A stretch of DNA of 37,929 nt from Candidatus Altimarinota bacterium (GTDB taxonomy: Bacteria; Patescibacteriota; Gracilibacteria; JBDHUY01). The stretch lies in contig JBDHUY010000016.1 of the NCBI GenBank assembly GCA_039809385.1, forward strand, positions 1-37,929, read 5' to 3'. Below the pieces are notes generated by a model. It was not told the origin of the DNA. It made no database searches and saw only the letters and a program-made list of their open reading frames with translations. How positions within the stretch are numbered: the first letter of the stretch is position 1; each line of letters begins with the position of its first letter. Below, one piece after another: positions 2,294-21,415 of this stretch. The translations under genes and the position numbers were made by a program.

Positions 2294-2644
2294 TTAAACA
2301 AATAAACCTGCCGCGCCTTCTCGTTTGGCTCGATCAATCCACAAAGCTACTTGCTCGTCTTTCGGCGTATGACCTGTATTTTCGACAAACCGCTTGATCC
2401 GGTAGGAAATCATTTCGCGCAGCGCCGGGCTTACTTTGCGCAAAAAAACATCTTCCGGCTTGGCTTTTCGAATTTTTCGAATATCCCGGGTCAGAATATC
2501 TTCTTCGTCGATGCATATGATCGCCGCCTGGACGCGAATATGCCGAATTCTTTTACAGGTTTCGTAGTCGACGACATAGAAATCGCCGTTAACCATCTCG
2601 ATGACGTACATCTGCTCGTATTGTTTGAGCGTTGCTTGACTCAT
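2294..2644 (-). CDS. Hypothetical protein translationally coupled to the replication initiator
   Basis: ATGA overlap with the rep stop at 2641-2644; 116 aa. Confidence 0.7.
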   Translation of the reverse strand: MSQATLKQYEQMYVIEMVNGDFYVVDYETCKRIRHIRVQAAIICIDEEDILTRDIRKIRKAKPEDVFLRKVSPALREMISYRIKRFVENTGHTPKDEQVALWIDRAKREGAAGLFV

Positions 2645-3459
2645 ACGGTAGTAAATTTATAAATAATAGTTTGAGAAAAATTAGTTTTTGCCTTGATTTT
2701 GAGCTGGTCGTACTGTTCCCGAAACTTCGCGGCCGACAGAATATTTGCTTTCCAGAACTTGTCGTTCTGGCACCAATTCAACAATACTTCCACATCACCG
2801 GGCGGACGGCCGTCGACCCGTAGTACCAGGTCGAACACTTCCGCCCATGCCTGCAGGCCTGCCTCCTGAATTTGGGGATCCTGCCATTTGGGCAGACAGT
2901 CGGGCGAGTTGTGACGCATGAGTTCAAAAAGCAACTGCGCCAGACGATACGGCTCCGACTCTTTTGCAAAAATTTTAAAAACTTTTTTCGGTCTTCTCCT
3001 CCCCCTGGGGGGATTATAGGGGGGTGCACCCCTGTTTAGTTCTTTACTGGTATAGTTCAGGTCGCTCTGTGCACCTACCCCCCCGTCGTCGTCGGCACCT
3101 ACGTTGTTGCTCTCTGCACCTAGGTAGTCGTTTTCGGCATCTACCTTGGCGGATGAATTCGATTGTACGCGAGGATCTTTATAGACGGTATATTTGGTAT
3201 TATCGTACTCTTGGGATCCTTCAACGAGTTTCTTCTGTCGCGAAATGAGGCCGTCCTTTTCGATCTCTTCGAGGTAGCGCAATACGGTCGTGCGATGGAC
3301 CCCCGTCTCTTCGGCGATCGTATTGAGCGAAGGGTAACACTGACCTTCGTTGTTCGAGTGGACCCACAGCCACGCCACGATCGTCTGATATATGGGGTTT
3401 TTACCCCGGACCAGCTGCGCCGGGAATATGCCGAATGTTCCTTGTTCGAGACGTTTCAT
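2641..3459 (-). CDS. Phage replication initiator (N-terminal HTH_36-like winged helix, lambda-O/DnaD-like C-terminus)
   Basis: CYPSLNTIAEETGVHRTTVLRYLEEIEKDGLI HTH; C-terminal DKFWKANILSAAKFREQYDQL motif typical of phage replisome organisers; internal DNA repeats. Confidence 0.85.
   Translation of the reverse strand: MKRLEQGTFGIFPAQLVRGKNPIYQTIVAWLWVHSNNEGQCYPSLNTIAEETGVHRTTVLRYLEEIEKDGLISRQKKLVEGSQEYDNTKYTVYKDPRVQSNSSAKVDAENDYLGAESNNVGADDDGGVGAQSDLNYTSKELNRGAPPYNPPRGRRRPKKVFKIFAKESEPYRLAQLLFELMRHNSPDCLPKWQDPQIQEAGLQAWAEVFDLVLRVDGRPPGDVEVLLNWCQNDKFWKANILSAAKFREQYDQLKIKAKTNFSQTIIYKFTTV
3061..3143. repeat. Iteron-like repeats inside rep (probable lytic origin)
   Basis: GCACCTA at 3071, 3095 and 3116 and GCATCTA at 3137 (spacing 24, 21, 21), with conserved flanks (GTCG/GTTG-N-TCT/TCG). 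Confidence 0.7.
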
Positions 3460-3469
3460 GTCCGGATAG

Positions 3470-3592
3470 TTAAAAAAGACTGAGTTGTTTTTTGCGATCG
3501 ATCTTGCGGCGCTTTGGTGCTAATTTTAGCTTTCTTATGCGTTTTCTTGGGGGGGGTGGAAAGAAAGACATTTGACCCGGGAGTTGTTTCAT
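3470..3592 (-). CDS. 40-aa basic peptide with two beta-clamp-binding-like motifs (not in ORF track)
   Basis: Manual translation MKQLPGQMSFFPPPPRKRIRKLKLAPKRRKIDRKKQLSLF*; fills the ssb-rep gap. Confidence 0.7.
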   Translation of the reverse strand: MKQLPGQMSFFPPPPRKRIRKLKLAPKRRKIDRKKQLSLF

Positions 3593-3605
3593 AGATCTTT
3601 AGTGC

Positions 3606-4001
3606 TTAAAAGAGATCCGTTTCCTCCGTTTCGCCCTGCCTGGTATTACGGCTCCCCTCTTCTGTCTGGGGTTTGCGGTCAAGCAAGATAACCCTTTCGG
3701 CGACGATCTTGATCCGGTAATGCTTGACGTCATGGTCGTCCGTCCAGTTGTCGACCTTGAGCTTGCCCTCGACATAAAGCGCGCTCCCCTTCCGGGCGTA
3801 TTGACTGACCACCTTGGCGAGTCCTCCCCACGCGACGACATTATGGAAGTCGGTCTCTTCGCGTTCCTCTCCCGCTCGGTTCTTATATCTCTCGTTTGTC
3901 GCAATCGAAAAGTTGGATACTATCTGGCCGCTTTCAAGCTCTTTCCCCTCCGGGTCGCGTGTCAGACGACCGAGGATCTGAACTCTGTTGAGTGTCTGCA
4001 T
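3606..4001 (-). CDS. ssb: Single-stranded DNA-binding protein
   Basis: LNRVQILGRLTRDPE...FSIATNE...TDFHNVVAW...KGSALYVEGKL OB-fold signature; acidic tail ending ETDLF. Confidence 0.95.
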   Translation of the reverse strand: MQTLNRVQILGRLTRDPEGKELESGQIVSNFSIATNERYKNRAGEEREETDFHNVVAWGGLAKVVSQYARKGSALYVEGKLKVDNWTDDHDVKHYRIKIVAERVILLDRKPQTEEGSRNTRQGETEETDLF

Positions 4002-4019
4002 TGGTTAAAAAATAATGAT

Positions 4020-4664
4020 TTAAAATAACAATTCTTGGCGTAGTCCTTCCCGGGCTATATCGCAGTACTTCTCTTCCAATTCGATTCCGATAAACTTCCT
4101 GCCTAGATACTTAGCTGCTATAAGCGTTGTGCCCACGCCCGCAAATGGATCCAGCACCATCTCTCCGGGATTAGAAAAGTACTTTACTAAGCCTAAGACA
4201 TGATCGATACGCCGGGGAGTGGGGTGTTTTCGTCTTTTCCGAGTAATGGGACCGTTATAACCGTTCGAGATAATTTCGCCCGGAATGAGTTTGTTTTCTT
4301 GTCTTTGCGGCAACCGGCCGAATACATAGGCGACATCGGACCCGATGAGGATCCTGCCCCGGTAAGAGGGGAAACAGTAGCGTAGCCACATGGTTCGAAT
4401 ATAGGGGAGACTCTTGGGAATTGAACCCAAGAACCGCGGATCGCTGGTACATCCCAACTGGACCACCACTGTCCGCGCGATTCTTGCAAATTCTTTGGCT
4501 GCTTTACGGAATACCTCCCAGGGATTCTTCGATCCTCGCAAACTCGGCAGAGCATTCGGCCAGACCGGGTCGGTGATGATCGTGTCGACAGATTGATCGG
4601 GGAAAGTTTTTAAAATCTTGAGGCTGTCGCCACAAATAATCTGATTGAGTTGCGTAAAAATCAT
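4020..4664 (-). CDS. DNA methyltransferase, N6-A/N4-C (beta class), orphan
   Basis: IICGDS...IITDPVW catalytic motif variant, HPTPRR, VLDPFAGVGTT SAM-binding motif, FIGIEL. Confidence 0.9.
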   Translation of the reverse strand: MIFTQLNQIICGDSLKILKTFPDQSVDTIITDPVWPNALPSLRGSKNPWEVFRKAAKEFARIARTVVVQLGCTSDPRFLGSIPKSLPYIRTMWLRYCFPSYRGRILIGSDVAYVFGRLPQRQENKLIPGEIISNGYNGPITRKRRKHPTPRRIDHVLGLVKYFSNPGEMVLDPFAGVGTTLIAAKYLGRKFIGIELEEKYCDIAREGLRQELLF

Positions 4665-4819
4665 GACAGAAATATTGCATTGATATCAGACACATGGTTA
4701 TTCCGGATCGGGCGCACGTCGAAAAGCCCGGCGGATTGTTTGTTGCGTTGCCGGTCACGGGCGGCCGCTTCGGCGCGCTCACGCAGAACATCGATCGTCA
4801 AACGAGTGGATGGTTGCAT
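4661..4819 (-). CDS. Small hypothetical protein, 52 aa (not in ORF track)
   Basis: MQPSTRLTIDVLRERAEAAARDRQRNKQSAGLFDVRPIRNNHVSDINAIFLS*; T-rich leader and ATGA overlap with the MTase start. Confidence 0.6.
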   Translation of the reverse strand: MQPSTRLTIDVLRERAEAAARDRQRNKQSAGLFDVRPIRNNHVSDINAIFLS

Positions 4820-4868
4820 AAAAAATACGTGGAAAATAAAAATAAAAAAGATACTAGTGTAGTTACTG

Positions 4869-5021
4869 TTATTCTCTATCCTTCTCTTGGGCCTTGGCGG
4901 TGTTGTACTCTTGTTTGAGTCGTTCTACCAATTGCTCATGTGAGGAGATTTTTACTTTGAGTGAGACAATCTGAGACTGATGATGACGGATACTCTTTTG
5001 GATAACTTTGGAGGAAATCAT
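4869..5021 (-). CDS. Small coiled-coil protein, 50 aa (not in ORF track)
   Basis: MISSKVIQKSIRHHQSQIVSLKVKISSHEQLVERLKQEYNTAKAQEKDRE*; heptad pattern; starts 12 nt after the upstream stop. Confidence 0.6.
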   Translation of the reverse strand: MISSKVIQKSIRHHQSQIVSLKVKISSHEQLVERLKQEYNTAKAQEKDRE

Positions 5022-5033
5022 GATAACGAGGAT

Positions 5034-5306
5034 TTAAGCAGATGTGAGGACCCCGCGGCGCCGGACGCCCGGCTTTCCCCGGACCAAGGGATTGGACACT
5101 TTGCAAAAGACCGTGGGCGGGTGCGGGTGGTTTTCGGCACACAAGTGAATCTTCAGGATGGCCGGGAGATCGATCTTGTTTTTGGCCAAGTATTCGTTCC
5201 ATAGTTTCTCACCGCCGCCGCTGACCATAAACTCGGCGATGAAGCGGGAGAAGACAATGCGCGATTGCTGGAACATGTATTCGGTGTACTGTTGAGGTTT
5301 ATCCAT
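5034..5306 (-). CDS. First gene of the leftward early operon, hypothetical
   Basis: Likely start MDKPQQY at 5306 after a pyrimidine-rich leader, directly downstream of the structured RNA leader. Confidence 0.55.
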   Translation of the reverse strand: MDKPQQYTEYMFQQSRIVFSRFIAEFMVSGGGEKLWNEYLAKNKIDLPAILKIHLCAENHPHPPTVFCKVSNPLVRGKPGVRRRGVLTSA

Positions 5307-5358
5307 GGAAAAAATGAAAATGGATAAAAAAACACACGTGTCGGTCACGAGAGCATAC

Positions 5359-5502
5359 AAAAAAGGCTCTCACGGGTGCTATTGCTTAGATAACTATCCC
5401 ATCCTTGGTTTTTATGCCATGGAAAAGATTCCGTGAGGGCCTGCAATATGTTACAGGATTTTTCCATAAAAACCAAATAAATGATAGAATAGTATCTAAG
5501 CA
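5359..5502 (-). ncRNA. Structured leader RNA, element E3 (C4/CI-like A-a-B-a'-A'-B' architecture)
   Basis: A 5483-5502 pairs with A' 5383-5403 (20 bp, 2 G-U, 1 bulge); a 5465-5476 with a' 5405-5416 (12 bp perfect); B 5431-5442 with B' 5364-5375 (11/12), followed by a U-run. Confidence 0.65.
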
Positions 5503-5507
5503 CATAG

Positions 5508-5536
5508 ACAATACGCTCTTTTAATACTATAATCAA
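5508..5536 (-). promoter_or_regulatory. Sigma70-type promoter for E3 and the early operon
   Basis: TTGATT-17 nt-TATTGT; arm A begins ~6 nt downstream. Confidence 0.6.
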
Positions 5537-5584
5537 GTTTTTTGTACTGAAATCTACTTTTTACTTTAATTATTAAAGTTTTTT

Positions 5585-5773
5585 ATGCAAGACAAAAACA
5601 AAACGGACAAATCAGACGTGAAACAAATACAGGTTTCCGTTCACAAAGAACTCTACGACCATATCCAGGAAACCAAAAAGAAGTACCTCTTCTCATCCAT
5701 GGCGGACGTACTGAAGGAGGCTTACAGAAGGACGTTTCTGAAAGAAGAGGAGAAAAACGATAAAAAAAGTTAG
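5585..5773 (+). CDS. Ribbon-helix-helix (CopG/Arc-like) transcriptional regulator
   Basis: KQIQVSVHKELYDHIQE...SSMADVLKEAYR matches the RHH beta-strand/helix/helix pattern; divergent from the early promoter. Confidence 0.75.
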   Translation: MQDKNKTDKSDVKQIQVSVHKELYDHIQETKKKYLFSSMADVLKEAYRRTFLKEEEKNDKKS

Positions 5774-7723: not shown

Positions 7724-8020
7724 ATGGGAGAAATAACTGGACGTGTATTGATTCAGGTTAGGGTTAATAAGATCTATCGAGACGAAGCGCGGGAGGTGCT
7801 TGACGATATCGGTATGGATGTAACCACCGCAGTTGAGATATTTCTAAAGACCGTAGCAAAAGAAAGAAAGATTCCTTTCACTCTTCGCGCTACGGATCCG
7901 CATGATTTCTATACCGAACAAGATCGCTTGGATATCCAGGAAGCGGCCCGCGAAATTGAAAAGGGCAATTTTATTACCCAAGAAGATCTGATGAAAAAAA
8001 TTAAAGCCCGTAAATCATGA
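7724..8020 (+). CDS. relB: RelB/DinJ-family antitoxin
   Basis: IQVRVNKIYRDEAREVLDDIGMDVTTAVEIFLKTVAKERKIPF is the RelB/DinJ RHH signature; ATGA overlap with the toxin. Confidence 0.9.
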   Translation: MGEITGRVLIQVRVNKIYRDEAREVLDDIGMDVTTAVEIFLKTVAKERKIPFTLRATDPHDFYTEQDRLDIQEAAREIEKGNFITQEDLMKKIKARKS

Positions 8021-8271
8021 AAGTTATATACTATCCCAAGGCTGAAGATTTTCTCCTCAAACTGACACCTAAAAAGTTTGCCGAAAGGATGATTAATAAA
8101 ATGCAGTGGTTTTCACAACAGGAAAATCCCTTGGACTTTGCCAAGCCACTGACTAATTTGCCGCCGGCAACACATCGATTCAGGATCGGGAATTATCGAG
8201 TTACTTTCAGTATCGATAAGGATCAGATCAATGTCTACAAAATTGATATTCGTAGCAAGATCTACAAATAA
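8017..8271 (+). CDS. relE: RelE/ParE-family toxin
   Basis: MKVIYYPKAEDFLLKL...HRFRIGNYRVTF...VYKIDIRSKIYK RelE signature. Confidence 0.9.
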   Translation: MKVIYYPKAEDFLLKLTPKKFAERMINKMQWFSQQENPLDFAKPLTNLPPATHRFRIGNYRVTFSIDKDQINVYKIDIRSKIYK

Positions 8272-8273
8272 GA

Positions 8274-9287
8274 TCACGCCCCCACTCCCCTCACCTGAAA
8301 ACCAGCAATTCCCGCCGAGGACTCTTCTGGGTTATTTTCTGTTTCGGGATCTTGCAGAATATCCTCAAAACTCATTTCACCATCAATGATCTGTGGTAAA
8401 TACGTTCTAGCCTTCGCATTTATGGCAGTTTCCGAAGAACTTAAAATTGCCGGTACTTCCGTCTTGGCTTTTTCTTTAAGGAATTCCCACTGATCCGGGT
8501 GCTCTTCTATCCAGGTATTCAAGATCTGGACTCGGGCCCTGTTCTGTTCTTCCTCTTTTTCTCTTCGACGTTGTTCCTGCTGTTCTTGCTCTCGTCGTTG
8601 TTGTCGTTCCTCTTCCTGTCGTTTTTCTTCCGGACGGACGTCCCAATTATCCTTGAGGGCTGAAATGATCCAAGCCTCCCGGCTGGTCTTGAACGATTCG
8701 ACCCGCCCTGATGCTTCGATCACTTCCTGAATCCGACCAGTCGGGTAATTATTGATTATTTTCTGCCCCTCTGATTTAGAGAAATGTAAATTCTGAAACA
8801 ACTCTTGTGGTTGTTCTTTTTTTGAGTATTGATCACCTGTTTGTTGTTCGTCGGAAACTGATTTCCGCTCTTGACCGGCAATAGATTTCCGAACAGGAGA
8901 GGAATTAGGTTGCCGATCGGGACCGGCAATAGATTTCCTTTCCATGATCTTGGCTTGGTATTCGGCTACAATGTCTTTTCTGGTTTGGGTAAAATCCAAG
9001 AAATGGTAGATATTTGGCCGGTTGAATCCTTGTCTTTCGATCATGATGAGCTTTTTTTTCTCCAGATCTTTCAAAATATTGCGGACCTGCCGTATACTGA
9101 TCTTCGAGTCTTGGCTTAAAGTATCCTGAGCCGGAAAAGCTTCCGGATTATGCCAGGCATAGCTTAAAAGAAGCATATACATTGCTTTTTCTTGTAGCGA
9201 GAGACTGCCAGTGTAGAGAATTACATTCGGCGTCTGGGCAAAACCGTCTCTGAGGATCGGATTGTGGAATACTGCCTTGTCATTCAT
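8274..9287 (-). CDS. Second replication initiator (HTH_36-type; probable plasmid-state Rep)
   Basis: GFAQTPNVIL...LSLQEKAMYMLLLSYAW...AFPAQDTLS...VRNILKDLEKKKLI...NRPNIY winged helix; WIISALKDNW C-terminal motif; internal iterons. Confidence 0.8.
   Translation of the reverse strand: MNDKAVFHNPILRDGFAQTPNVILYTGSLSLQEKAMYMLLLSYAWHNPEAFPAQDTLSQDSKISIRQVRNILKDLEKKKLIMIERQGFNRPNIYHFLDFTQTRKDIVAEYQAKIMERKSIAGPDRQPNSSPVRKSIAGQERKSVSDEQQTGDQYSKKEQPQELFQNLHFSKSEGQKIINNYPTGRIQEVIEASGRVESFKTSREAWIISALKDNWDVRPEEKRQEEERQQRREQEQQEQRRREKEEEQNRARVQILNTWIEEHPDQWEFLKEKAKTEVPAILSSSETAINAKARTYLPQIIDGEMSFEDILQDPETENNPEESSAGIAGFQVRGVGA
8849..8938. repeat. Four 24-bp-period iterons inside the second rep
   Basis: GACCGGCAATAGATTTCC is identical at 8873-8890 and 8921-8938, with degenerate copies at 8849-8866 and 8897-8914; semi-palindromic GG(A/C)A...TT(T/G)CC core. 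Confidence 0.8.
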
Positions 9288-10138
9288 TTAGATCCAAATA
9301 ACCATTTAAATAAACCTCTCGTATTTTTGTTTTTTTTAACTTCCTCTTTGGGATCTTCCTCTTCATGAATAACTTCCGTTTCTGGTATAATGATCTCCTC
9401 GGGAACTTTCGCGATTGCCTCAAAAATAGAACTCTGAGGAGCTTCTTGATACTCAGCATCTTCCGGCATCTGCAGATCTCCCGAGTCGGTGATCTCTGGA
9501 ATAAGTACCAGCTCCCGGGGATTTAACGCGCCTTCTCTTAGGCGGCGTACGTCTTGATTGTATCGTAAAGAGAGAATCTTGTACTTGCCTCGCAGATCGG
9601 CCAGCTGGGCTGCTGCTACGCTCGCCTCCTTAGCTAGTCGCTCTACTTCGCTGCTATGGTGTCTTTCCGCATCGACCCGGAGATCGTTCAATCTCTGGAT
9701 CTCTGCGTTGATCCGTTGACTTTCCTCTTGGGACTTCTGGAGCTCCCGCTCCATAAAATCATATAAGCGATCGTCGGTTTCTTTCGTCTCGACGGGCATG
9801 GTATTACGTTTTTGCGGTTCAGGTATTACGACCTCGGAAGGTATATTATAAATTGACTGGAAACCAGGTATTACATCACGGAATGCGTCGGGGGTGTATT
9901 CCTCAATTTTTTGGAAATCAAGTCTTACCTTGTCCGGGTGTCGCCGTGCAAATTCTCGAATCGAGCTCGCTGAAATAAAGGTCTGGGGTCGACCATTATA
10001 CTGTTTATCTTTTTTCCTAATCCCGTCGGAATAATAGCTCCATAGAGTCTTCACACTTTTTCCTATAATAGTAGCGGCTTCTGGAATCGCGTAAATATAA
10101 TCATCATCCTCACTCAGGATAGGAACATTTTTAGCCAT
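9284..10138 (-). CDS. HTH + coiled-coil protein with amphipathic C-terminal tail (pSK1 Par/RacA-like architecture; putative partition protein)
   Basis: YAIPEAATIIGKSVKTLWSYY HTH, central coiled coil, acidic disordered region, terminal RGLFKWLFGSK; ATGA-coupled to the second rep. Confidence 0.6.
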   Translation of the reverse strand: MAKNVPILSEDDDYIYAIPEAATIIGKSVKTLWSYYSDGIRKKDKQYNGRPQTFISASSIREFARRHPDKVRLDFQKIEEYTPDAFRDVIPGFQSIYNIPSEVVIPEPQKRNTMPVETKETDDRLYDFMERELQKSQEESQRINAEIQRLNDLRVDAERHHSSEVERLAKEASVAAAQLADLRGKYKILSLRYNQDVRRLREGALNPRELVLIPEITDSGDLQMPEDAEYQEAPQSSIFEAIAKVPEEIIIPETEVIHEEEDPKEEVKKNKNTRGLFKWLFGSK

Positions 10139-12886: not shown

Positions 12887-15800
12887 TTATATCCCCCCAA
12901 ATTTTTTCTTGAGCCGCTGATATGATTCTTTCTGCTCCGGCGAAAGCTTGCTATAGATCTTATCGGCTTCTTCTTTGCCATGTTCGGCTTTCACTTTCTG
13001 GATATCGACAAAAATCTGGTATGTATCCTTGTCGGTGGCCTTGGTGTCCTTGGCTTTATCCGCCGCTTTCAGCTTTTTGTAGATATCGCGCTTTTCGGGT
13101 GGGAGTTTGAAATATTCTTCGTCCGCTTTGGCCGAGTCAGTCTCTTTCATTTTTCGAATCCTCTCATACTCAGGGCGAAAAGCTTCCCTCTCATCGCGAT
13201 CTTTCTTTTCGACTTCGTCGACGGCTCGATAGTATTCGTTATCTTTATTGCCGAAACGAAAGGGTAGTTCCAGGCCGGAAAGCGCGGCTTGGGTGGCGGA
13301 AGATTTTCCCGTGGCATAATCGACCCCACTTTTTACATACGTTGGCACGACTAATTGCGAGAGCTCTCCCAGTACATTGGCGATTTGCTTTTCTATTGGT
13401 ATGTCGTTTCCATAGCGATCTTTCCCATAGATCGGCCGTCCGAGATAGTCCGTATTGGCGGCTAGATGGGTAAATACTCCCAACGGTATAGATAGCCGGT
13501 TCGATACCACCCGGAATACTCCCGACGCATCTCCTCGCATCAAGCCGACGGCGACATCCAGCGGGATCCTCAAAAAATCCACCGCGGTACCAAAGGGACG
13601 CATATAGATCGGATCGCCATTCTCGTCTTGGCCGATCTGGATTTCCCACCAGTGTTTAGGATCCTGCTCCCAGAGGTGCTTGCCATGCATAGCGTAGTTG
13701 AGCGTATCCAGTGTCGTGATGCCCAGGATCATGTTCCGCACCATTCTCCGGTAGGGCGCAAACCGCGGATTAAACCAGTTCTTGGGAGTAAATCCCCGAA
13801 TTGCGTTCGCGCCCAAGCGCACATTAGTTTCGGCCCAGTCTGGGGCTAGGATGAAAACCCTGAGAATATTCTGCATCTCGCGACTCCGTCCCCACAAATC
13901 GTAGTTTATACCGCCGAAAAGGTTGTTCGTTACTTCGGCCGCGCGTTCTTTAGCCTCGGGTACTTTGTTTTTCAGAAAATCTTTGTAAATCTCTTCGTAA
14001 GCTTTGAGCTTGAGTGCGGGCAGCATTTTTTCGAAAAGTCCGTTTTCAAACAGATGATTCTGGATCTCTCCTGCCCAGGAAGGAATCAGTTTTATTTTTT
14101 CGGCCAAGTTAAGTTTCATATTCATCGGCGCGTTTTCGAGCTCTTCTTTGGTCATCGACTCCTTGGCGCGCATCGCTTTGACGACTTCCGCATCTTTGTT
14201 GATATCCTTAATCGCTTCTGCCAGTCCCCGTTTGAGACTGGTTACCGCTTCTTTCTCGGTATTCATTTTGAGACCATGCTGAACGGCATCAATCATCAGT
14301 TCGCTTTTGTCCATTTGCAACAGATACTTTTCAGCCTCGGCCGGGCGTACCATATACCACAGACCGGTTAAAGCTTGACCGACGGGATTCTTGGCTGCTA
14401 TTACCGATCGAGCCAAAATATTAAACCCGTGCGCATTCATGGCGGTAAAGGGAACACCCGAAGACAGTACAATATTTTTCATCTTCGACGTGTAGTTGGC
14501 GAGCTTAGCCAGTGGACCCGTGGGATTATCCAGATAGTTATTGATAAACTTGGCCAGCTCGGCCGGGGCCGCATAGCGTCCGGTATAGGTGTGCTGTCCG
14601 GCGCTCGCTTCGCCGACGATCGTGGTAAAGCGCGGAAAACCGTCGCCCAGTGTTTTCCACCCGATAGGCGCGCTCTCTTCGGGTTGGATAAACCCCTCGT
14701 CTGCTAAATACTTAAACAGCGTTCGGTCTGCCAGAGCTTTCTCTAGCGTGCGCTCGTACCATCCGGCGAGCTGCGAGATACTGGTATAGCGAGGTGTGAG
14801 GCCGTATTTTATGCCCATCTGATAGGATTCGATCGTCCGATGAATGGAAAAAGACGGTTTCTGGGTAAGACGGGAAACGATCTCGTTGACCTCCTGCTCG
14901 CTGTTGCGCCATAGTTGCGGCAGGTAGTGTTTCCAGTAGCCCATCTGTATACCGGCATTCGTGGCTTTGCGTCCGGCGGCGTCGAAAAAAGCTTTGACTT
15001 CCTGATACCCGTCGATCGTCCCGGCTTGAAATTCGAGGATCCCTTCCAGTCCTTTTTTGTCGTATTTTTCGAATTCGCGCTTTCTGAGATACCCCGATGT
15101 TTTGGCGGCGGAACGGTTGTTTATCCAGCGGCGCAGTTCTTTCTGCAGATCTTCGGTAAATGCCGCAAAGCCTTTTTTCTTAATATTACCGGCTACCGCC
15201 CAGAGCGCGGCGCGCTGAACCGCTTCGGGAGAGGTATCTATTTCGATGCGCTGCACGCCTTTGAGTTCGTCTCCCGACTGTAATACTTCTCGCAACGCTT
15301 GTTCCCCTTGTTCGATGATTGCTTTCTTCTCTGCATCGGTACGGGTATCAAAGAGTTGTTCTTGTTTGACCTGCAGAGGAATGGTTTCTTCCTGGGCTTT
15401 CTTAAATGTTTCGTCCAGAGAAACCAGCGGTTTTGCTTCGCCGGACGCTTCCACGCCGCTGAGATTCATATCTTCCTGCTGCGGCTGAAATTGTGCGTTA
15501 TAGTCCTGGACATATTCGGTATAGGTCTTGAGCCGATATTGATTGCCCCGGACATGCGCACGCAAAAATTCGGGCATCATGCTTGCCCGGGCGGCGCGGT
15601 ACTTTTCGGCTAGGAGCGTATACTCGTCTTTGGTGAGTAAATGGGGCGGTTCGTTGTCTTGTTCTGGCGTATCAAAGCTCATATCTTCTTGTGGCTCGAT
15701 TGACTTTTGGGTGGATTGTGATATGCTGGTAGCAGGTGATTCACCGACGCCAGAAAGCATAGCGCGCCCCAGCTGGCTTGCAGTCCCTTCCGGAGGGAAA

Positions 15801-17932
15801 GTCGCAAGTGAGGGATGTGGCGCCCCTCCGGTCGAATCATATAAAACCTTCCCTCTCGAGAGAAGGTTTTTTACATACTTCGTTGCCTTGTTCTGGCCGG
15901 TTGGTTCGGGATTGAGGACCGTTACCGTGTAAAAGCCGTTCTCTTTCTTAGCACCGACGATGAAGTAATCATCTTCGTCTACCTTTTTTATAAAATTAAG
16001 ACCTTCGTTTTTTCGCTCGTCAAACCACTGCACGATATAATCGGGCTGATGTATAGTCAATACTGTATTTTCATTTGGAAGGCTGCCATGCTTTTGAATG
16101 ATCTCTTTAGCGTTCTCGTACTTCAATACGAGGGCTTTTTCGCTACCGATCAGTTCTTTCGGAAGGTATGCCAGGATACTAACGGCATCTTCTCCTTTCT
16201 TTACCTTGGCAATGTTTTGGACGAGCGGGGTCAGATTGTCGGGGACTTCGGCTATTGGGGCAATATTGAATACTTTGGTCTTTCCCGCCTGTGGACTGGT
16301 TTCTAGCAGAGGTTCCAACTTTGTAACCTCCTTTGAAGATCCCATGACTCCATGATAAAAATAAGTCAGCTTCTTAACCATCATCGGATTAACCCGACTT
16401 TTCGGACCCGCCAGTGCTTGAAGTTTCATCGGCAAACTTGCATCGTATGCAAGAGCCTTGCGCAAAGGAAAGTAGTAATGGAGAAGATTGCTATATGCTT
16501 GAGTGAATGCGCCGCTTTGATCTTTGCTTGTTGTTCCGGATATTTCGCGGGCTTTCCTTTTTAGGAAAGATTCAAAACCATTCTGACTGCCAAAGTCCTG
16601 CACGAAATCGTCAATACTTTTATAAAGCTGTACTTCCTTAGCCAAAGGTTCTAAATCCTTCGGAACCTTAAAAGCGCCAGAAAAATCTTTGCCGCCGCTG
16701 ACATCTTGAATACTCAATCCGGCATGGGTCTTCATGTACTGGACCGGATTGTTTAAAAATTGCTGGATACTCTCCATCTGCGTTTTCACGATTGTTCGTT
16801 TAGGTGCGGGCAAGGCTAGTCGTGTCAGATCTTGAGCAAAGCCCTCGTATACCTTCCCCGGATCGATCCGGAACTTCTTCGATACTGCCACGATACGGGC
16901 CGTCAAGGGGTTCTCTTTGAGCCACTTTATCGCACCCGTAAGTTCGGCCGATTTGCCGGCCTCTCCTAAACCCACGATATTTTTTTGAATATTTTTCGCC
17001 AGATTCTTGGCCGTTATATCAATCTCTCCGCCGCGAATTCCCAAAAGATCCAGTGATTTATCGGTAATTTTTAGGTTATTCCGAAGTCCCTGTGTCGATC
17101 CTTGTAACGCATCTTTGAGACTGATCCCCATTTTGCTCAATTCGAGCGTGGAAAAAGCAAAAGCGTCTGCCGTTTGCTTATCGCCTTCTTCTCTCGTACT
17201 TTCTATACCCCATTGCTCGTACCCTTCGGGAACCAGCTTCCCCAATGCCTTTTTCATATCGCCAGATCCCATAAAAAGTTCATGCAGCGCGGCCGGGGAG
17301 TAGTATGCTTTGTCCAGGATATCGAGAATCCCCTCCCCTACTTTGCCCACAAGTCCAAAAATAGGATAAATAGCTCGTTCGTTGAATTCTCTCGTAAGTT
17401 GTTCATCTCCTCCCGGCTTACCCATCTCCTGGTACCACCTTTGCTCTGCACGTGCTACGGACATAAAAGATTCCGGTGTTTCATCAAATCCACTAATTGC
17501 TTCCACATGCCCGGACGAATTCCCCGCTCGGGCGCCGAGCAAAGCCCCGCGTACCTCCGGCATGCTTTGTATCTGATCGAGGTACTTCTTTTTGGGTGTC
17601 ACGGGACTTCCGAAAAAGTCGGCAAGCCCCTTGCCGGCATTGTGGGCCAGATCCGATAAAACATCCGGCTCCTTATTCTTTCCTTCCCGCAGAATACTCC
17701 AGGCCTCTTTTTTATTCGGGTTACTGTTCCACCAGTCGTATTGTTGCAGATTCAGACCGCCCACGCTGCGCGCTTTTTCGGCCAACTCCGGAGCCGATAG
17801 AATTCGATTCTTTGGTTTTTCCCTAGACTTTGTCGCATTGCCGGATTTTACCAGATTCTGTAAATAACCGGCACTGTCCTGGACCGACTGGATCGGGTTT
17901 TCAAAAAAAGCAATAAGTGGGTTTTTCGCCAT
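12887..17932 (-). CDS. Very large internal virion/ejection (polyvalent) protein
   Basis: 1681 aa, last gene of the structural module; largely helical; AAEVTNNLFGGINY and DYLGRPIY segments typical of large podovirus core proteins. Confidence 0.7.
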   Translation of the reverse strand: MAKNPLIAFFENPIQSVQDSAGYLQNLVKSGNATKSREKPKNRILSAPELAEKARSVGGLNLQQYDWWNSNPNKKEAWSILREGKNKEPDVLSDLAHNAGKGLADFFGSPVTPKKKYLDQIQSMPEVRGALLGARAGNSSGHVEAISGFDETPESFMSVARAEQRWYQEMGKPGGDEQLTREFNERAIYPIFGLVGKVGEGILDILDKAYYSPAALHELFMGSGDMKKALGKLVPEGYEQWGIESTREEGDKQTADAFAFSTLELSKMGISLKDALQGSTQGLRNNLKITDKSLDLLGIRGGEIDITAKNLAKNIQKNIVGLGEAGKSAELTGAIKWLKENPLTARIVAVSKKFRIDPGKVYEGFAQDLTRLALPAPKRTIVKTQMESIQQFLNNPVQYMKTHAGLSIQDVSGGKDFSGAFKVPKDLEPLAKEVQLYKSIDDFVQDFGSQNGFESFLKRKAREISGTTSKDQSGAFTQAYSNLLHYYFPLRKALAYDASLPMKLQALAGPKSRVNPMMVKKLTYFYHGVMGSSKEVTKLEPLLETSPQAGKTKVFNIAPIAEVPDNLTPLVQNIAKVKKGEDAVSILAYLPKELIGSEKALVLKYENAKEIIQKHGSLPNENTVLTIHQPDYIVQWFDERKNEGLNFIKKVDEDDYFIVGAKKENGFYTVTVLNPEPTGQNKATKYVKNLLSRGKVLYDSTGGAPHPSLATFPPEGTASQLGRAMLSGVGESPATSISQSTQKSIEPQEDMSFDTPEQDNEPPHLLTKDEYTLLAEKYRAARASMMPEFLRAHVRGNQYRLKTYTEYVQDYNAQFQPQQEDMNLSGVEASGEAKPLVSLDETFKKAQEETIPLQVKQEQLFDTRTDAEKKAIIEQGEQALREVLQSGDELKGVQRIEIDTSPEAVQRAALWAVAGNIKKKGFAAFTEDLQKELRRWINNRSAAKTSGYLRKREFEKYDKKGLEGILEFQAGTIDGYQEVKAFFDAAGRKATNAGIQMGYWKHYLPQLWRNSEQEVNEIVSRLTQKPSFSIHRTIESYQMGIKYGLTPRYTSISQLAGWYERTLEKALADRTLFKYLADEGFIQPEESAPIGWKTLGDGFPRFTTIVGEASAGQHTYTGRYAAPAELAKFINNYLDNPTGPLAKLANYTSKMKNIVLSSGVPFTAMNAHGFNILARSVIAAKNPVGQALTGLWYMVRPAEAEKYLLQMDKSELMIDAVQHGLKMNTEKEAVTSLKRGLAEAIKDINKDAEVVKAMRAKESMTKEELENAPMNMKLNLAEKIKLIPSWAGEIQNHLFENGLFEKMLPALKLKAYEEIYKDFLKNKVPEAKERAAEVTNNLFGGINYDLWGRSREMQNILRVFILAPDWAETNVRLGANAIRGFTPKNWFNPRFAPYRRMVRNMILGITTLDTLNYAMHGKHLWEQDPKHWWEIQIGQDENGDPIYMRPFGTAVDFLRIPLDVAVGLMRGDASGVFRVVSNRLSIPLGVFTHLAANTDYLGRPIYGKDRYGNDIPIEKQIANVLGELSQLVVPTYVKSGVDYATGKSSATQAALSGLELPFRFGNKDNEYYRAVDEVEKKDRDEREAFRPEYERIRKMKETDSAKADEEYFKLPPEKRDIYKKLKAADKAKDTKATDKDTYQIFVDIQKVKAEHGKEEADKIYSKLSPEQKESYQRLKKKFGGI

Positions 17933-17950
17933 AAATGGGTCGTTAAAAGA

Positions 17951-20900
17951 CTAAGCTCCTTCGTCCTCATCTTCGTCCAGTTTCTGCCAGACCTCCGGAG
18001 GTAATTCCCAAATGTTTTTCTGGGCATATTCTGGTTTCCATACTCCCGCTTTCAAAAGTTTGACAATCTGTGGATTCGATAACTTTCTCCCTGCTTCGGG
18101 AGTAACGCTCCAGTCGTATTTAGGTTTCTCGAGAAAAGAAGAGAACTTTTCCGCAAAGTCGCGGAAAACACCGGGAGATAGCTTCTCGTATAGTTTTTCG
18201 CTCTCTCGAAACTTTTGCATGATATAATTTTTCACGACGATTTTGTTCGCATTATTAGCATATTCAAATTGATTGGTCAGCTCTTCGGCCACCTCTTCCA
18301 TTGTTTGCTTTTTATCACCCGCAGCCCAGTTCGCGTAGGCCACTGGGATGAACTTATCGACAGACGGATACCCCCCAGTCTTGGTATTTTGCATGCTAGA
18401 CGATACATAATACCCCTTGATCCGCGGATCGTTGATCGAGAGCGTTTCACGCTTGAACCTTCCGCCCGGGACGTTGGTCTGACTGATGGTTATCTTGTCT
18501 TTGGTCACTTGCTCTACATAAAATAGGTGTCCGTAATTGATTCCTGTTTCTGGATCGATCTTGCCGTAGTCCATTATGCCAACTGCACCCGGTAGCGGAT
18601 AACGCGAACCGTTAGCCCCGTTGACCAGACGATCGATTTTATTCTGAAGCGAGAGTAACCCGGACTGCGGGAACCCGGGAATGTTCAGAGAGCGGATATA
18701 TTTAACACAGTTTGATAAAATATCGGGGCTAAGGTTCGTCCCGTCGATCTGTGCCACGCTTCCCGGTACGATAGTATCCGTTCCGTCCAGGTACTGGATG
18801 GCATCGATCTTCCCGGCATTCTTTTGCATCATCATCCAGTCTTGTGCCTTCTGCGCCATTGTGGCGTCACCTTTCATTGTAGCATACATATATGCGCCGA
18901 AAGGGGTGTCGATCATTTGCATCATGGCACTCCGGTCTTTCTCGCTCATAGAGCTGGCCAGAGCGGCTATATCGAGCCCGCTAAAACCGGCCATGGAGAG
19001 GGTGCCTTCGTCTACCATAGAGAGTCCTTTGCCTCCAAAGTTTTCTACCAGGATCTTGATCGCGTCCCGCGCCTGCGTTTGCTGGTCTTTGTTCTCTTCT
19101 CTCTTTTCTTTCTTCAGGGCGATCATCTGGTTAAAATAATCGTTCAGGGCTTCCCGTTTTGCTTTTTGCAGCTCGACAGCGGTCTGCTGATCCTGGGCTC
19201 GCAGTTTCAGCATTGTATCGATGGTGCCGTTGACGGATTCCAAAATACTTTGGGCACTGTCCCGCTGGCGGCGATAGAAGTCGGCGCGTTCCATATAGGC
19301 GCGTTCCTCCTGGCTGACTCGTCCGGCGATCACGCTCATGGGGACCTGTTTGTTCAGCTCGGCATTGCGCTGCTGCCGAAAGGCGGCTTCTTCGTCGGCC
19401 AGCTGCTTATTCCAGTCCTGTACTTCGGTCTGGTACTGCTTGACGTTATAGGCATCCTGCAGCTCTTTATACATCTGTTCGAGTGTTTTGGGCGCCGGAG
19501 CATCGTCCCCCCGGGTAGGAATATCATCTTCGTCGTCTGTACTGCCGTAAGCATCGTTCAGAGCATCATAAAAGTCTTCGATCGAATCATACTGCGTAAT
19601 ATCGAAAGGATCGGTACTCGCCGATCCACTCGGTGCGGAAGACGTTGAGGTATGTTTCTTGTTATACTCGTCCCAGAGGCGATAGGCCTCTACTTGTGCA
19701 GCGGTGGGCTGACCGTTGTTATACAGGGCCATCCACTCCGGATTGCTCGGATCCGGACGGATTACCCCGTCTTTGATGAGACCAAAAAGAAGATTCGCCG
19801 ATAGGCGTCCATATTTATTGTAGGCATCCCACATGGCATAGGCTTGTTTCTGGGCCGAGGTAGCCTCGCCGTTCTGATAGAGCCCCATCCATACCGAATT
19901 AATGCTTGGATCTCTACCGGGCACGAGCATCCCGGCTTTTATTCCTTCAAAAAGTTCCTGGGCACCTCTCCCCTGCCACGGGTTCGCCATACCTCCCGCG
20001 CCGGGGCGATAGAGTATCCCCGTTTCGGGATCGCGGATCGTACGGTTATCCTGATTGGCCATGTCCTGTAAATCTTGGCGGTATCCGGGTTGATTGGTCG
20101 AGCTGTTCTGCTGAGAAGACCCTGGGGCCTCGTAATCGCGTAAATACAAATCCCGTTGTTCTGCGCTCATGGAGTTCCATTTTTCCGGGGTCATCGAAGC
20201 GGGGGCAGGCTTTTTCCCGCTGGCAGGAGGGGGGTTCCCTGCAGGAGTACCGGCAGTTCCTGCGGCAGTATTGTACGGTTGCATGCCGGAAGGCGTCCAC
20301 TGGCCGGAGGTATAGCGCTGCCACATATTCTCTCCGTACTGCGGATCGTCTCTCCGTCCGAATTGCTGTAAAAACTCTTCTTTAGAAATGTTCTGAGTAC
20401 CGGGACTGGGTGGTGTTGCTGCAACGCCGGGGGCGGGCTGGGCGGGAACGGACCCCGATTGTTTGAGAAAATCGGGTTGTCCGTGCTCTTGCGTATACCG
20501 CTCTTTCATTTCATAACTGAGAGTGTTCCACTTCTCCGATGTCATACTACCCGCCGCTTGTTTCTGCTTTTCGGCATCCACGGCACTGACTGGAACCTTG
20601 ACACCGCTCTGTGCGAGGTAGGTATCCAGCTGCTCCGGAGTGGAAAACCTTTGATCGAACGGGGTAAAATTCCCGGATTTGTAGGCCTGATAGCCTTCGT
20701 GTTTGGCGCGTTCATCCCACTTCCACGGATTCTGTAAATAGTCGTTCAATTTATCGATCGCGGCTTTTTGTAAAGCCGGGTGGGCGTTTTTGAATTTTTC
20801 AGATTGCGTAATATCCCCACCCCGCAAGAAATCATCATGTAACGCATCGGTCAGCTCCCACACACTTGGGTTGAAGCGCTTGTTATCATTCTCAAAAGCG

Positions 20901-21415
20901 CTATAACTGCCGTCCCCGGCAGCTTTGAAATTTATCACATTCGGATTGCGTGAGTCGGCGATCGTATTATTGATACCGTAACTATCTAAAAGTCTTTTGG
21001 TTATGGCATTTTTCTGCGCCGAATTCCCTGACAATCCCGTTAGGAAAGATTGTGCCCCCGCCGTATTAGTACCAAAGGACCGATTGATCCAATTCGTGAA
21101 TTCTGCAGTCTGCGTTATATCTTTGCCTTGTCCGTAATTTTGAGCAAACACGTTCTTCTCTTTTGTGTCGCGGATCATCTCTCCCATCCTCTCGTCGGTC
21201 AATTTGCGTACGCCCTGCAAATAGGCCATGTCTTGAAAACTGTTGATATTGTTCGCAATAGCAAAATCCGCCAGGCGTTGGGGATCTTTGACCAGACGAT
21301 CGACTTCTTCGGCTACGGGACGATAGCGCTCTTCTCCCCACCCTTGATGGAGCTTAGTAGGTTTCGCGCTGCGCAGGTAGGTCAGAATATCCTGGGAGTT
21401 GAGATTGTTTGGCAT
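17951..21415 (-). CDS. Internal virion protein with CHAP-type peptidoglycan hydrolase domain
   Basis: NCVKYIR...PGAVGIM...YGHLFYVEQV...ITISQTN (Cys/His CHAP pattern), coiled coil, P/A/G-rich linkers. Confidence 0.7.
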   Translation of the reverse strand: MPNNLNSQDILTYLRSAKPTKLHQGWGEERYRPVAEEVDRLVKDPQRLADFAIANNINSFQDMAYLQGVRKLTDERMGEMIRDTKEKNVFAQNYGQGKDITQTAEFTNWINRSFGTNTAGAQSFLTGLSGNSAQKNAITKRLLDSYGINNTIADSRNPNVINFKAAGDGSYSAFENDNKRFNPSVWELTDALHDDFLRGGDITQSEKFKNAHPALQKAAIDKLNDYLQNPWKWDERAKHEGYQAYKSGNFTPFDQRFSTPEQLDTYLAQSGVKVPVSAVDAEKQKQAAGSMTSEKWNTLSYEMKERYTQEHGQPDFLKQSGSVPAQPAPGVAATPPSPGTQNISKEEFLQQFGRRDDPQYGENMWQRYTSGQWTPSGMQPYNTAAGTAGTPAGNPPPASGKKPAPASMTPEKWNSMSAEQRDLYLRDYEAPGSSQQNSSTNQPGYRQDLQDMANQDNRTIRDPETGILYRPGAGGMANPWQGRGAQELFEGIKAGMLVPGRDPSINSVWMGLYQNGEATSAQKQAYAMWDAYNKYGRLSANLLFGLIKDGVIRPDPSNPEWMALYNNGQPTAAQVEAYRLWDEYNKKHTSTSSAPSGSASTDPFDITQYDSIEDFYDALNDAYGSTDDEDDIPTRGDDAPAPKTLEQMYKELQDAYNVKQYQTEVQDWNKQLADEEAAFRQQRNAELNKQVPMSVIAGRVSQEERAYMERADFYRRQRDSAQSILESVNGTIDTMLKLRAQDQQTAVELQKAKREALNDYFNQMIALKKEKREENKDQQTQARDAIKILVENFGGKGLSMVDEGTLSMAGFSGLDIAALASSMSEKDRSAMMQMIDTPFGAYMYATMKGDATMAQKAQDWMMMQKNAGKIDAIQYLDGTDTIVPGSVAQIDGTNLSPDILSNCVKYIRSLNIPGFPQSGLLSLQNKIDRLVNGANGSRYPLPGAVGIMDYGKIDPETGINYGHLFYVEQVTKDKITISQTNVPGGRFKRETLSINDPRIKGYYVSSSMQNTKTGGYPSVDKFIPVAYANWAAGDKKQTMEEVAEELTNQFEYANNANKIVVKNYIMQKFRESEKLYEKLSPGVFRDFAEKFSSFLEKPKYDWSVTPEAGRKLSNPQIVKLLKAGVWKPEYAQKNIWELPPEVWQKLDEDEDEGA

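Follow-up and report, generated by a model that had tools for sequence, protein, structure and literature searches.

What does a 40-codon open reading frame (ORF) encode when it lies between the gene for the single-stranded DNA-binding protein (SSB; ssb) and the replication initiator gene (rep) of a phage, and when its product ends in a consensus pentapeptide for binding the bacterial sliding clamp? The ORF in question occupies positions 3470-3592 of contig JBDHUY010000016.1 (assembly GCA_039809385.1, from a Candidatus Altimarinota bacterium). The window that we analysed is this whole stretch of 37,929 nucleotides (nt), and coordinates refer to it unless another contig is named. Our answer is tentative, and we rate it just short of an even call: the product would be a real, disordered phage peptide that docks on the host clamp, DnaN.

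A short frame with a clamp-binding motif at its C-terminus

The ORF and its parts are as follows.

3470..3592, minus strand: candidate clamp-docking peptide ORF (ATG 3592-3590, TAA 3472-3470; 40 codons plus stop)
3560..3574, minus strand: QMSFF, residues 7-11, an N-terminal off-consensus pentapeptide resembling a clamp motif
3488..3559, minus strand: PPPP followed by a linker rich in K and R, residues 12-35 (24 residues), with a C8 run at 3549-3556
3473..3487, minus strand: QLSLF, residues 36-40, a consensus clamp-binding pentapeptide at the extreme C-terminus
3469..3478, minus strand: CTT TTT TAA C, a T6 run ending in the stop of the peptide, possibly a "+1 shifty stop"

Conceptual translation of 3592-3470 on the minus strand gives MKQLPGQMSFFPPPPRKRIRKLKLAPKRRKIDRKKQLSLF, exactly as quoted in a first-pass annotation made from the sequence alone, which had placed a 40-residue peptide between ssb and rep and had named no strand; the frame is a real one, running from ATG to TAA. 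The basic linker that the same annotation saw between two motifs is there too, the peptide containing 8 K, 6 R, 6 P and 1 D, its one acidic residue (K or R at 14 of 40 positions; isoelectric point (pI) 12.0). It matches no Pfam or PHROG family at E <= 0.01.

Besides the pentapeptide, the general criterion for clamp clients admits the hexapeptide Q-phi-x-L-x-L, and the clamp motif is, to our knowledge, universal across beta clamps. A recent preprint gives the consensus as Q-phi-x-L-F, specifically QL[S/D]LF, with positions 1, 4 and 5 mattering most, and reports that QLSLF itself binds the E. coli clamp with a dissociation constant (Kd) of 0.64 uM and the B. subtilis clamp with one of 3.1 uM (bioRxiv 10.64898/2026.05.27.728225). 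The C-terminal QLSLF of the peptide is an exact match to this consensus and sits at a free C-terminus, as had been claimed for it, and by this published yardstick it is a strong candidate for a clamp anchor. The N-terminal QMSFF agrees with the consensus at positions 1, 2, 3 and 5 and not at position 4; M at position 2 occurs in known motifs. Both pentapeptides are placed where they would be exposed, since one is the C-terminus and the other begins only six residues into the chain, at residue 7; no family or fold matches the peptide, and its predicted local distance difference test (pLDDT) value is ~60 in the complex described below.

The composition of the peptide suggests a different function as well, namely that of a real basic micro-protein which binds RNA in the manner of an antiterminator, condenses DNA or partners the acidic tail of SSB. 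Arginine-rich RNA-binding phage peptides exist (the lambda N family), the pI and the K and R content would suit such a role, and the gene adjoins that of an SSB with an acidic tail. Such a function, however, leaves unexplained two terminal Q-x-x-hydrophobic-F pentapeptides, one of them exact consensus, and no Pfam or PHROG family backs it; we regard it as distinctly unlikely.

Rarity of the motif pair

Motifs were counted in six frames over the whole 1.87-Mb genome (3,744,176 codons), in classes that were defined after the ORF had been seen. QL[SD]LF occurs seven times, and one of the seven stands directly before a stop, this being the copy in the peptide. The looser Q[LMIV][SD][LFMI]F has 65 copies, of which three precede a stop. 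The two pentapeptides of the peptide are the sole pair of clamp-motif-like pentapeptides lying no more than 60 residues apart in one open frame, and among the 41 gene models of the window the peptide alone has two matches and alone has a match at a terminus. A consensus followed by a stop would be expected roughly 0.3 times per genome (~0.3), a figure that a second motif within 60 residues would multiply by ~1e-3. The observation is thus borne out and is statistically striking. Moreover, the gene for a DNA methyltransferase (MTase), ssb and the peptide ORF are three adjacent genes whose products end in LF, an ending found elsewhere in the genome in 13 of 2,224 ORFs of at least 100 amino acids (aa), with Q-x-x-L-F endings in two of the 2,224.

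The frame fills a gap in the replication operon

Three genes on the same strand surround the ORF.

4020..4664, minus strand: N6/N4 DNA methyltransferase (PF01555, E 2.1e-19), upstream of ssb
3606..4001, minus strand: phage SSB (PF00436, E 1.5e-34; phrog_44) with an acidic tail ending ETDLF, directly upstream of the peptide ORF
2641..3459, minus strand: replication initiator (rep) of the winged helix-turn-helix, DnaD/O-like kind (PF13730 HTH_36, E 2.8e-11), directly downstream of the peptide ORF

The PHROG matches of rep are phrog_2514, "DnaD-like helicase loader" (1.1e-29), and phrog_391, "replication initiation O-like" (4.3e-27). The spacing is tight on both sides, with 13 nt from the ssb stop to the ATG of the peptide and 10 nt from its stop to the rep ATG. 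If the ORF is taken away, a hole of 146 nt opens in a tightly packed same-strand operon: 10 of the 11 intergenic gaps listed measure between -44 and +54 nt, and the remaining one, from 2105 to 2294, is 188 nt long. No terminator-like or promoter-like site was found on the coding strand of the MTase-ssb-peptide-rep stretch (2641-4664) that would part the genes. The minus-strand matches in a scan of 2400-5600 were a weak promoter-like site near 5048 (~5048) and a terminator-like one inside rep (~2806), neither of which separates the genes of the operon. The RNA of the peptide region is unstructured (z = +1.15, with 178 of 200 shuffles folding at least as well) and has no Rfam match, and no iteron-like repeats occur in 3460-3605. 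A non-coding reading of the spacer was rejected on these three grounds. Taken together, the position in the gap, the absent signals and the absent RNA fold favour a coding gene, whose translation we infer; among the sequencing runs listed, no RNA run carries the phage sequence.

The homopolymeric runs within the ORF could have been assembly errors. Contigs of run X3, which comes from a different study and spans 2928-4018, and of run X5 (3062-3596) show no substitution and no indel inside the ORF, so that the C8, A6 and T6 runs are genuine and an error at any of them can be dismissed. The contigs of run X2 end at 3542 and 3644 and are uninformative across the ORF.

The host clamp and its clients

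Does the host possess a clamp on which such a peptide could dock? Its DnaN, of 368 aa and encoded on contig C5, carries PF00712, PF02767 and PF02768, matches solved clamps down to E 2.7e-51, and is by these marks an intact, ordinary beta clamp. Invariant in 120 DnaN relatives are T171, D172, S173, R175 and L176, P242, and M363, P364, L365 and K366, all within segments that make up the peptide pocket of the E. coli clamp. QTSLF is found in the host DnaE (contig C12), at residue 967 of a 1271-residue open frame, and the phage QLSLF is nearer to consensus than this.

No polymerase, helicase, primase or clamp family was found among the 30 ORFs put through family scans, a subset of the ORFs of the window, so the phage probably uses the host replisome, the host clamp included. 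Two further observations concern host clients. A 132-residue host ORF (contig C2, 151050-151448) ends in QPGLF and may be another one. Host proteins with QLSLF or QMSLF that a loose scan had brought up as comparators were dropped; of these two, from contigs C8 and C25, one lies in a frame that is spurious and the other resembles a lipoprotein.

Comparison with known clamp binders

The sliding clamp is a hub of bacterial replication and repair and an antibacterial target, and we know of few phage proteins that touch it. Short terminal motifs that insert in the clamp pocket are found in Pol II, Pol IV, T4 gp43, gp33 and gp55, and the disordered eukaryotic PIP-box proteins p21 and p15PAF; the PIP box is often flanked by basic residues, and p15PAF reaches the DNA through the ring. 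In all these cellular, T4 and PIP-box clients the motif tethers an enzyme or regulator domain, whereas the peptide has nothing but a linker and a second motif.

The nearest parallel in layout is MuC of phage Mu. According to a report of 2026, MuC has QHDLF at its N-terminal and QPDLF at its C-terminal end and binds DnaN, and both motifs are needed; it uses DNA-loaded clamps as a platform, and its overexpression is toxic only by soaking up clamps (PMC12867686). Like MuC as described there, the peptide would be phage-encoded, with a motif at each end, a DNA-binding middle and the host clamp as its target. Unlike it, MuC is a protein of ~140 residues that includes a folded domain for binding DNA and works together with RNA polymerase at late promoters (PMC12867686); the same text discusses an analogy with T4. 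The peptide has 40 residues and a basic linker in place of a domain, shows no detectable homology to MuC, and stands in a replication module and not in a late-regulation position. It is not a member of the Mor/MuC family, with no Pfam and no PHROG match at E <= 0.01, and 40 residues are too few for a domain with a C-terminal helix-turn-helix.

In the initiator TrfA of RK2, QLSLF at residues 134-138 is required for the interaction with the beta clamp (PMC8034659). TrfA thus resembles the present case in an identical pentapeptide and an initiator context, and differs from it in that its motif lies within the initiator, whereas here it is in a separate ORF 10 nt upstream and in a +1-related frame. 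The two initiators are unrelated, TrfA standing against an HTH_36/DnaD-O-like protein. Nor is the arrangement of the TrfA type: the peptide ends at a stop of its own, rep is read in a frame offset by +1 from it, and the split is present in independent contigs. A 2006 article by Kongsuwan reportedly announces in its title the toxicity of an N-terminal TrfA peptide.

Finally, the beta clamp of the host is the target of a small protein of Staphylococcus phage Twort, Gp168 (and of ORF240 of G1); the Gp168 dimer plugs the DNA channel and blocks loading, with no use of the pocket or of a clamp motif described (PMC8565349). The peptide has no sequence similarity to Twort Gp168. By analogy with these systems, it is plausible that the peptide represents a phage clamp binder in minimal form, reduced to its motifs, in a layout already known from MuC.

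A proposed mode of action

We propose that the ORF would be a translated phage gene in an MTase-ssb-X-rep operon, its product being an intrinsically disordered 40-mer. The C-terminal QLSLF, with its free carboxylate, would insert in the protein-binding pocket of one DnaN protomer, as the C-terminal or internal motifs of polymerases do, and QMSFF would act as a second, weaker anchor that could extend to the other protomer and its pocket; fully extended, the 24-residue linker would span at most ~85 A (estimated at 3.5 A per residue). The K/R-rich linker would lie over the ring face and contact the DNA threading the clamp. In this way the peptide would fill the pockets, preferentially on DNA-loaded clamps, and would compete with host clients that are further from consensus, such as DnaE with its QTSLF.

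As to the outcome, we favour, by analogy, a capture in which the host clamp is held on phage DNA and host clients are excluded over an outright shut-off, because the phage seems to be without a replicase of its own and because MuC uses DNA-loaded clamps. The first-pass annotation had the peptide either inhibiting or redirecting host replication; the inhibitory half of that proposal proved no better supported than use or redirection of the clamp.

A stronger version may be considered, in which the 40 residues, encoded by a phage of a candidate-phyla-radiation bacterium, form a staple, the smallest natural two-site clamp ligand, whose ends would fill both DnaN pockets with the basic linker gripping DNA, and in which the whole module would be wired to the clamp by C-terminal hooks, the MTase tail among them. 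We find this version possible and on the whole doubtful.

Were the staple to prove true, capture of the clamp by bare linear motifs, with no folded domain, would be a phage takeover strategy. Were clamp docking to prove true, motif-only capture would exist in nature and would reach the phages of the barely studied Patescibacteria, and the peptide might act in concert with a methyltransferase that is itself tethered to the clamp. Should the peptide bind at two sites, it would in addition be a ready-made template, its linker length and chemistry being useful for the design of clamp inhibitors.

Complex prediction and the case against clamp docking

A prediction of the complex with a DnaN dimer, which the first-pass annotation had named as a check, was run three times with two copies of host DnaN (120-row alignment) and the peptide. 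In two controls an unrelated peptide (44 or 48 residues) replaced this one, and in a third an unrelated protein of 383 residues replaced DnaN. The interface score ipSAE was 0.55, 0.55 and 0.52 for the peptide and 0.00 in all three controls, a pass that is graded "weak support" on a benchmark in which the mark is reached by 58 of 80 complexes of solved structure and by 2 of 110 pairs that were mismatched. The runs share at least 82% of their contacts, with a partner pLDDT of at least 59. The score does not separate one-pocket from two-pocket binding, so that this weak pass does not bear on the occupancy of both pockets. The pass may also reflect memory, many clamp-peptide complexes being among the solved structures.

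Several results weigh against clamp docking. As regards the prediction itself, the score band up to 0.60, in which our pass falls, is reached by 7 of the 80 solved complexes and by both passing mismatches, and the majority of passes in this band are false, except where the proposed pairing was already probable. As regards the second anchor, position 4 of QMSFF, which counts among the three key positions, is F, and a peptide that likewise contains M, QMGLF, is described as a weak binder in the preprint that gives the consensus (bioRxiv 10.64898/2026.05.27.728225). Of the two clamp motifs originally claimed, then, the C-terminal one is exact, and the bivalency is doubtful, with F standing in QMSFF where the key L is expected; as a clamp anchor QMSFF is itself doubtful and at best the weaker one. 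The target is also less than certain, for the assignment of the host rests on binning and on matching G+C (0.468 for the phage contig, 0.434-0.468 for the other contigs).

The searches for relatives of the peptide point the same way. Among 5.8 billion proteins, a word-indexed search limited to lengths of 22-70 aa returned nothing, not even the peptide, and its absence from the collection means that no source had called the ORF as a gene. phmmer against 1.84 billion representatives of any length gave no match at E <= 0.001, and the ESM Atlas gave no usable match. In a six-frame search of 401 genomes of the class, the source genome alone was significant; 43 of the 401 had a match at E <= 1, the best of the others at E 0.018, and none of the four other matches inspected shares the motifs, these being basic-stretch noise or a membrane protein. 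Among the IMG/VR matches listed, no dual-motif mini-ORF was an analogue with a basic linker; this survey used one degenerate pattern (TTT-TAA ends, a gap of 18-28 residues) that yielded at least 118 stretches, and it is not evidence of absence. Of the 118 IMG/VR loci listed, 11 have both motifs in frame, ten of them hydrophobic junk ORFs and one the C-terminus of a 544-residue protein. This last, a viral protein that ends exactly in QLSLF, probably serves in replication as an enzyme that is hooked to the clamp by its C-terminus.

Shine-Dalgarno-like sequences precede none of the 35 phage gene starts, which leaves the peptide ORF without start-site support. The assemblies are near-identical, differing over 2.1 kb at 2651 and 3709 alone, 2 substitutions that leave the ORF untouched, so that they yield no ratio of non-synonymous to synonymous substitutions (dN/dS). 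An open frame of this size is in itself unremarkable, the first 9 kb alone holding 103 ORFs of at least 30 aa; since 40-codon frames are common, the signal lies in the motifs and the position and not in the open frame. Even the motifs are subject to a look-elsewhere effect, in that scanning very many windows yields an occasional chance pair.

These points lend weight to a chance frame, or to a leader that couples the translation of rep to that of ssb, in either of which cases the peptide would be functionless and its motifs coincidental in an A/T-rich spacer whose codons happen to be those of K, R, L and F. Frames of 40 codons are abundant noise, the composition is of low complexity, and neither a homologue nor a gene call came from the protein collections searched. 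In a phage without Shine-Dalgarno sequences, moreover, a short ORF ending 10 nt before an ATG could serve termination-reinitiation, and by a rough estimate about one chance co-occurrence of two motifs and a stop would be expected overall, given a scan of enough windows. Yet the joint event is rare (~0.3 per genome multiplied by ~1e-3), the consensus is exact and at a free C-terminus, as in known clients, and the ORF has an ATG start, lies on the coding strand of a replication module and fills its gap. The adjacent MTase, with a related tail that recurs in other phages, also speaks against coincidence, as does, weakly, the complex score of 0.55 against 0.00 for size-matched unrelated peptides. 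We judge a chance frame or leader to be unlikely, though a contender to be taken seriously.

A possible frameshift into rep

The T6 run at the stop raises another explanation of the ORF, as an N-terminal extension of Rep that is reached by a +1 shift on CTT TTT TAA C, or as part of an ancestral rep split by a 1-nt insertion. In the former case the Phe-tRNA would re-pair on the next TTT with the stop in the A site, and four codons would lead to the rep ATG, giving a Rep of ~316 residues with N-terminal clamp motifs. Shifty stops are established in principle, the prfB site being CUU UGA C. The geometry is suitable: relative to the peptide, rep is read in frame +1, and its frame stays open over the 20 codons that precede the ATG (from 3519; 292 = 272 + 20 codons), no stop occurs from the T6 run to the rep ATG, the ORFs are 10 nt apart, and the T run before the stop permits perfect re-pairing of Phe-tRNA. 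TrfA is an example of an initiator with a clamp motif of its own (PMC8034659). A shift of this kind would make the locus the phage counterpart of TrfA-type recruitment of the clamp to an origin.

Against it, the T6 run is genuine in three assemblies (the window, X3 and X5), so the split is not an assembly error; there is no stimulatory element to be seen, and the phage uses no Shine-Dalgarno-like element. The +1 relation has a prior of one in three, and T-richness follows from coding L-F-stop. Rep, furthermore, is complete as it stands, HTH_36 beginning at residue 26 and the PHROG profiles at residues 29-37, and its one distant relative (30% identity) has neither such an N-terminus nor such an upstream ORF. 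We consider a frameshift or split improbable, and the least probable of the readings.

That relative came from metagenome contigs, where one of 104 matches was confirmed, at 30% identity over residues 126-256 of Rep and with no comparable upstream ORF. Searches with Rep gave 4 pattern matches in viral contigs and 67 matches in genome contigs, none of either confirmed, and Rep found only itself in 61 related genomes and among 5.8 billion proteins. SSB matched one locus in viral contigs (49% identity), which is non-syntenic. By blastn, the replication module had no match in GenBank phages, and tblastn of the major capsid protein against the same phages gave 76 records, all below 60% identity, with the nearest below 40%.

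The tail of the adjacent methyltransferase

The first-pass annotation had noticed a similar ending on the MTase, and rightly: its last five residues are QELLF (4023-4037, minus strand), outside the Pfam match, which covers residues 141-205 of 214. Homologues from six other phages were compared, three of which have an end of the Q-x-x-L-F or Q-x-x-L-x-F type.

Burkholderia phage vB_E159 and Gordonia phage Bibwit, MTase homologues: Q-x-x-L-F at or near the end
Gordonia phage Sampson, MTase homologue: an end of the Q-x-x-L-x-F hexapeptide type
A Vibrio phage, an archaeal virus and a faecal-sample phage, MTase homologues: end before any such tail

A tail that is optional and yet recurrent is what a clamp hook would be expected to look like, and the sequences may point to a recurrent clamp hook of phage methyltransferases. 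In a limited search of the literature, no title or abstract was found that links a methyltransferase with a clamp-binding motif.

The phage and its host

The window is a whole contig (C16) in a genome bin of 1.87 Mb and 26 contigs that is 95% complete. It is a tailed phage, with genes for the small and large terminase, portal, major head protein (phrog_1357, 3.4e-66), tail fibre and an amidase endolysin; neither an integrase nor a flank of host sequence was noticed on it. The host bin belongs to the Patescibacteria (Peregrinibacteria-like), the relatives of its DnaN being labelled Peregrinibacteria, Gracilibacteria or Patescibacteria, and its long genes are open under table 11. Two studies of sludge or wastewater include runs whose contigs contain near-identical copies.

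Several other features of the contig deserve mention. Inside rep, its low-complexity middle (3061-3133) holds several direct repeats of 17-21 nt that share GCACCTA and could be origin iterons; in lambda, the origin iterons lie within the initiator gene O. A second initiator-like gene, at 8274-9287 on the minus strand (HTH_36, E 5.8e-9; DnaD_N, E 6.1e-6), overlaps an upstream ORF of 284 residues without a family (region 8274-10138), and with rep it makes two initiator-like genes in a phage of 38 kb. In the tail region (12887-21415, minus strand), ORFs of 1681 and 1154 residues have no Pfam family, the second showing a sub-threshold CHAP match. At 7724-8271 on the plus strand, an ORF resembling RelB-family antitoxins (PF04221, E 2.2e-8) has a 4-nt overlap with an 84-residue ORF without a Pfam match; judged from the sequence, this layout is that of a phage-borne toxin-antitoxin pair.

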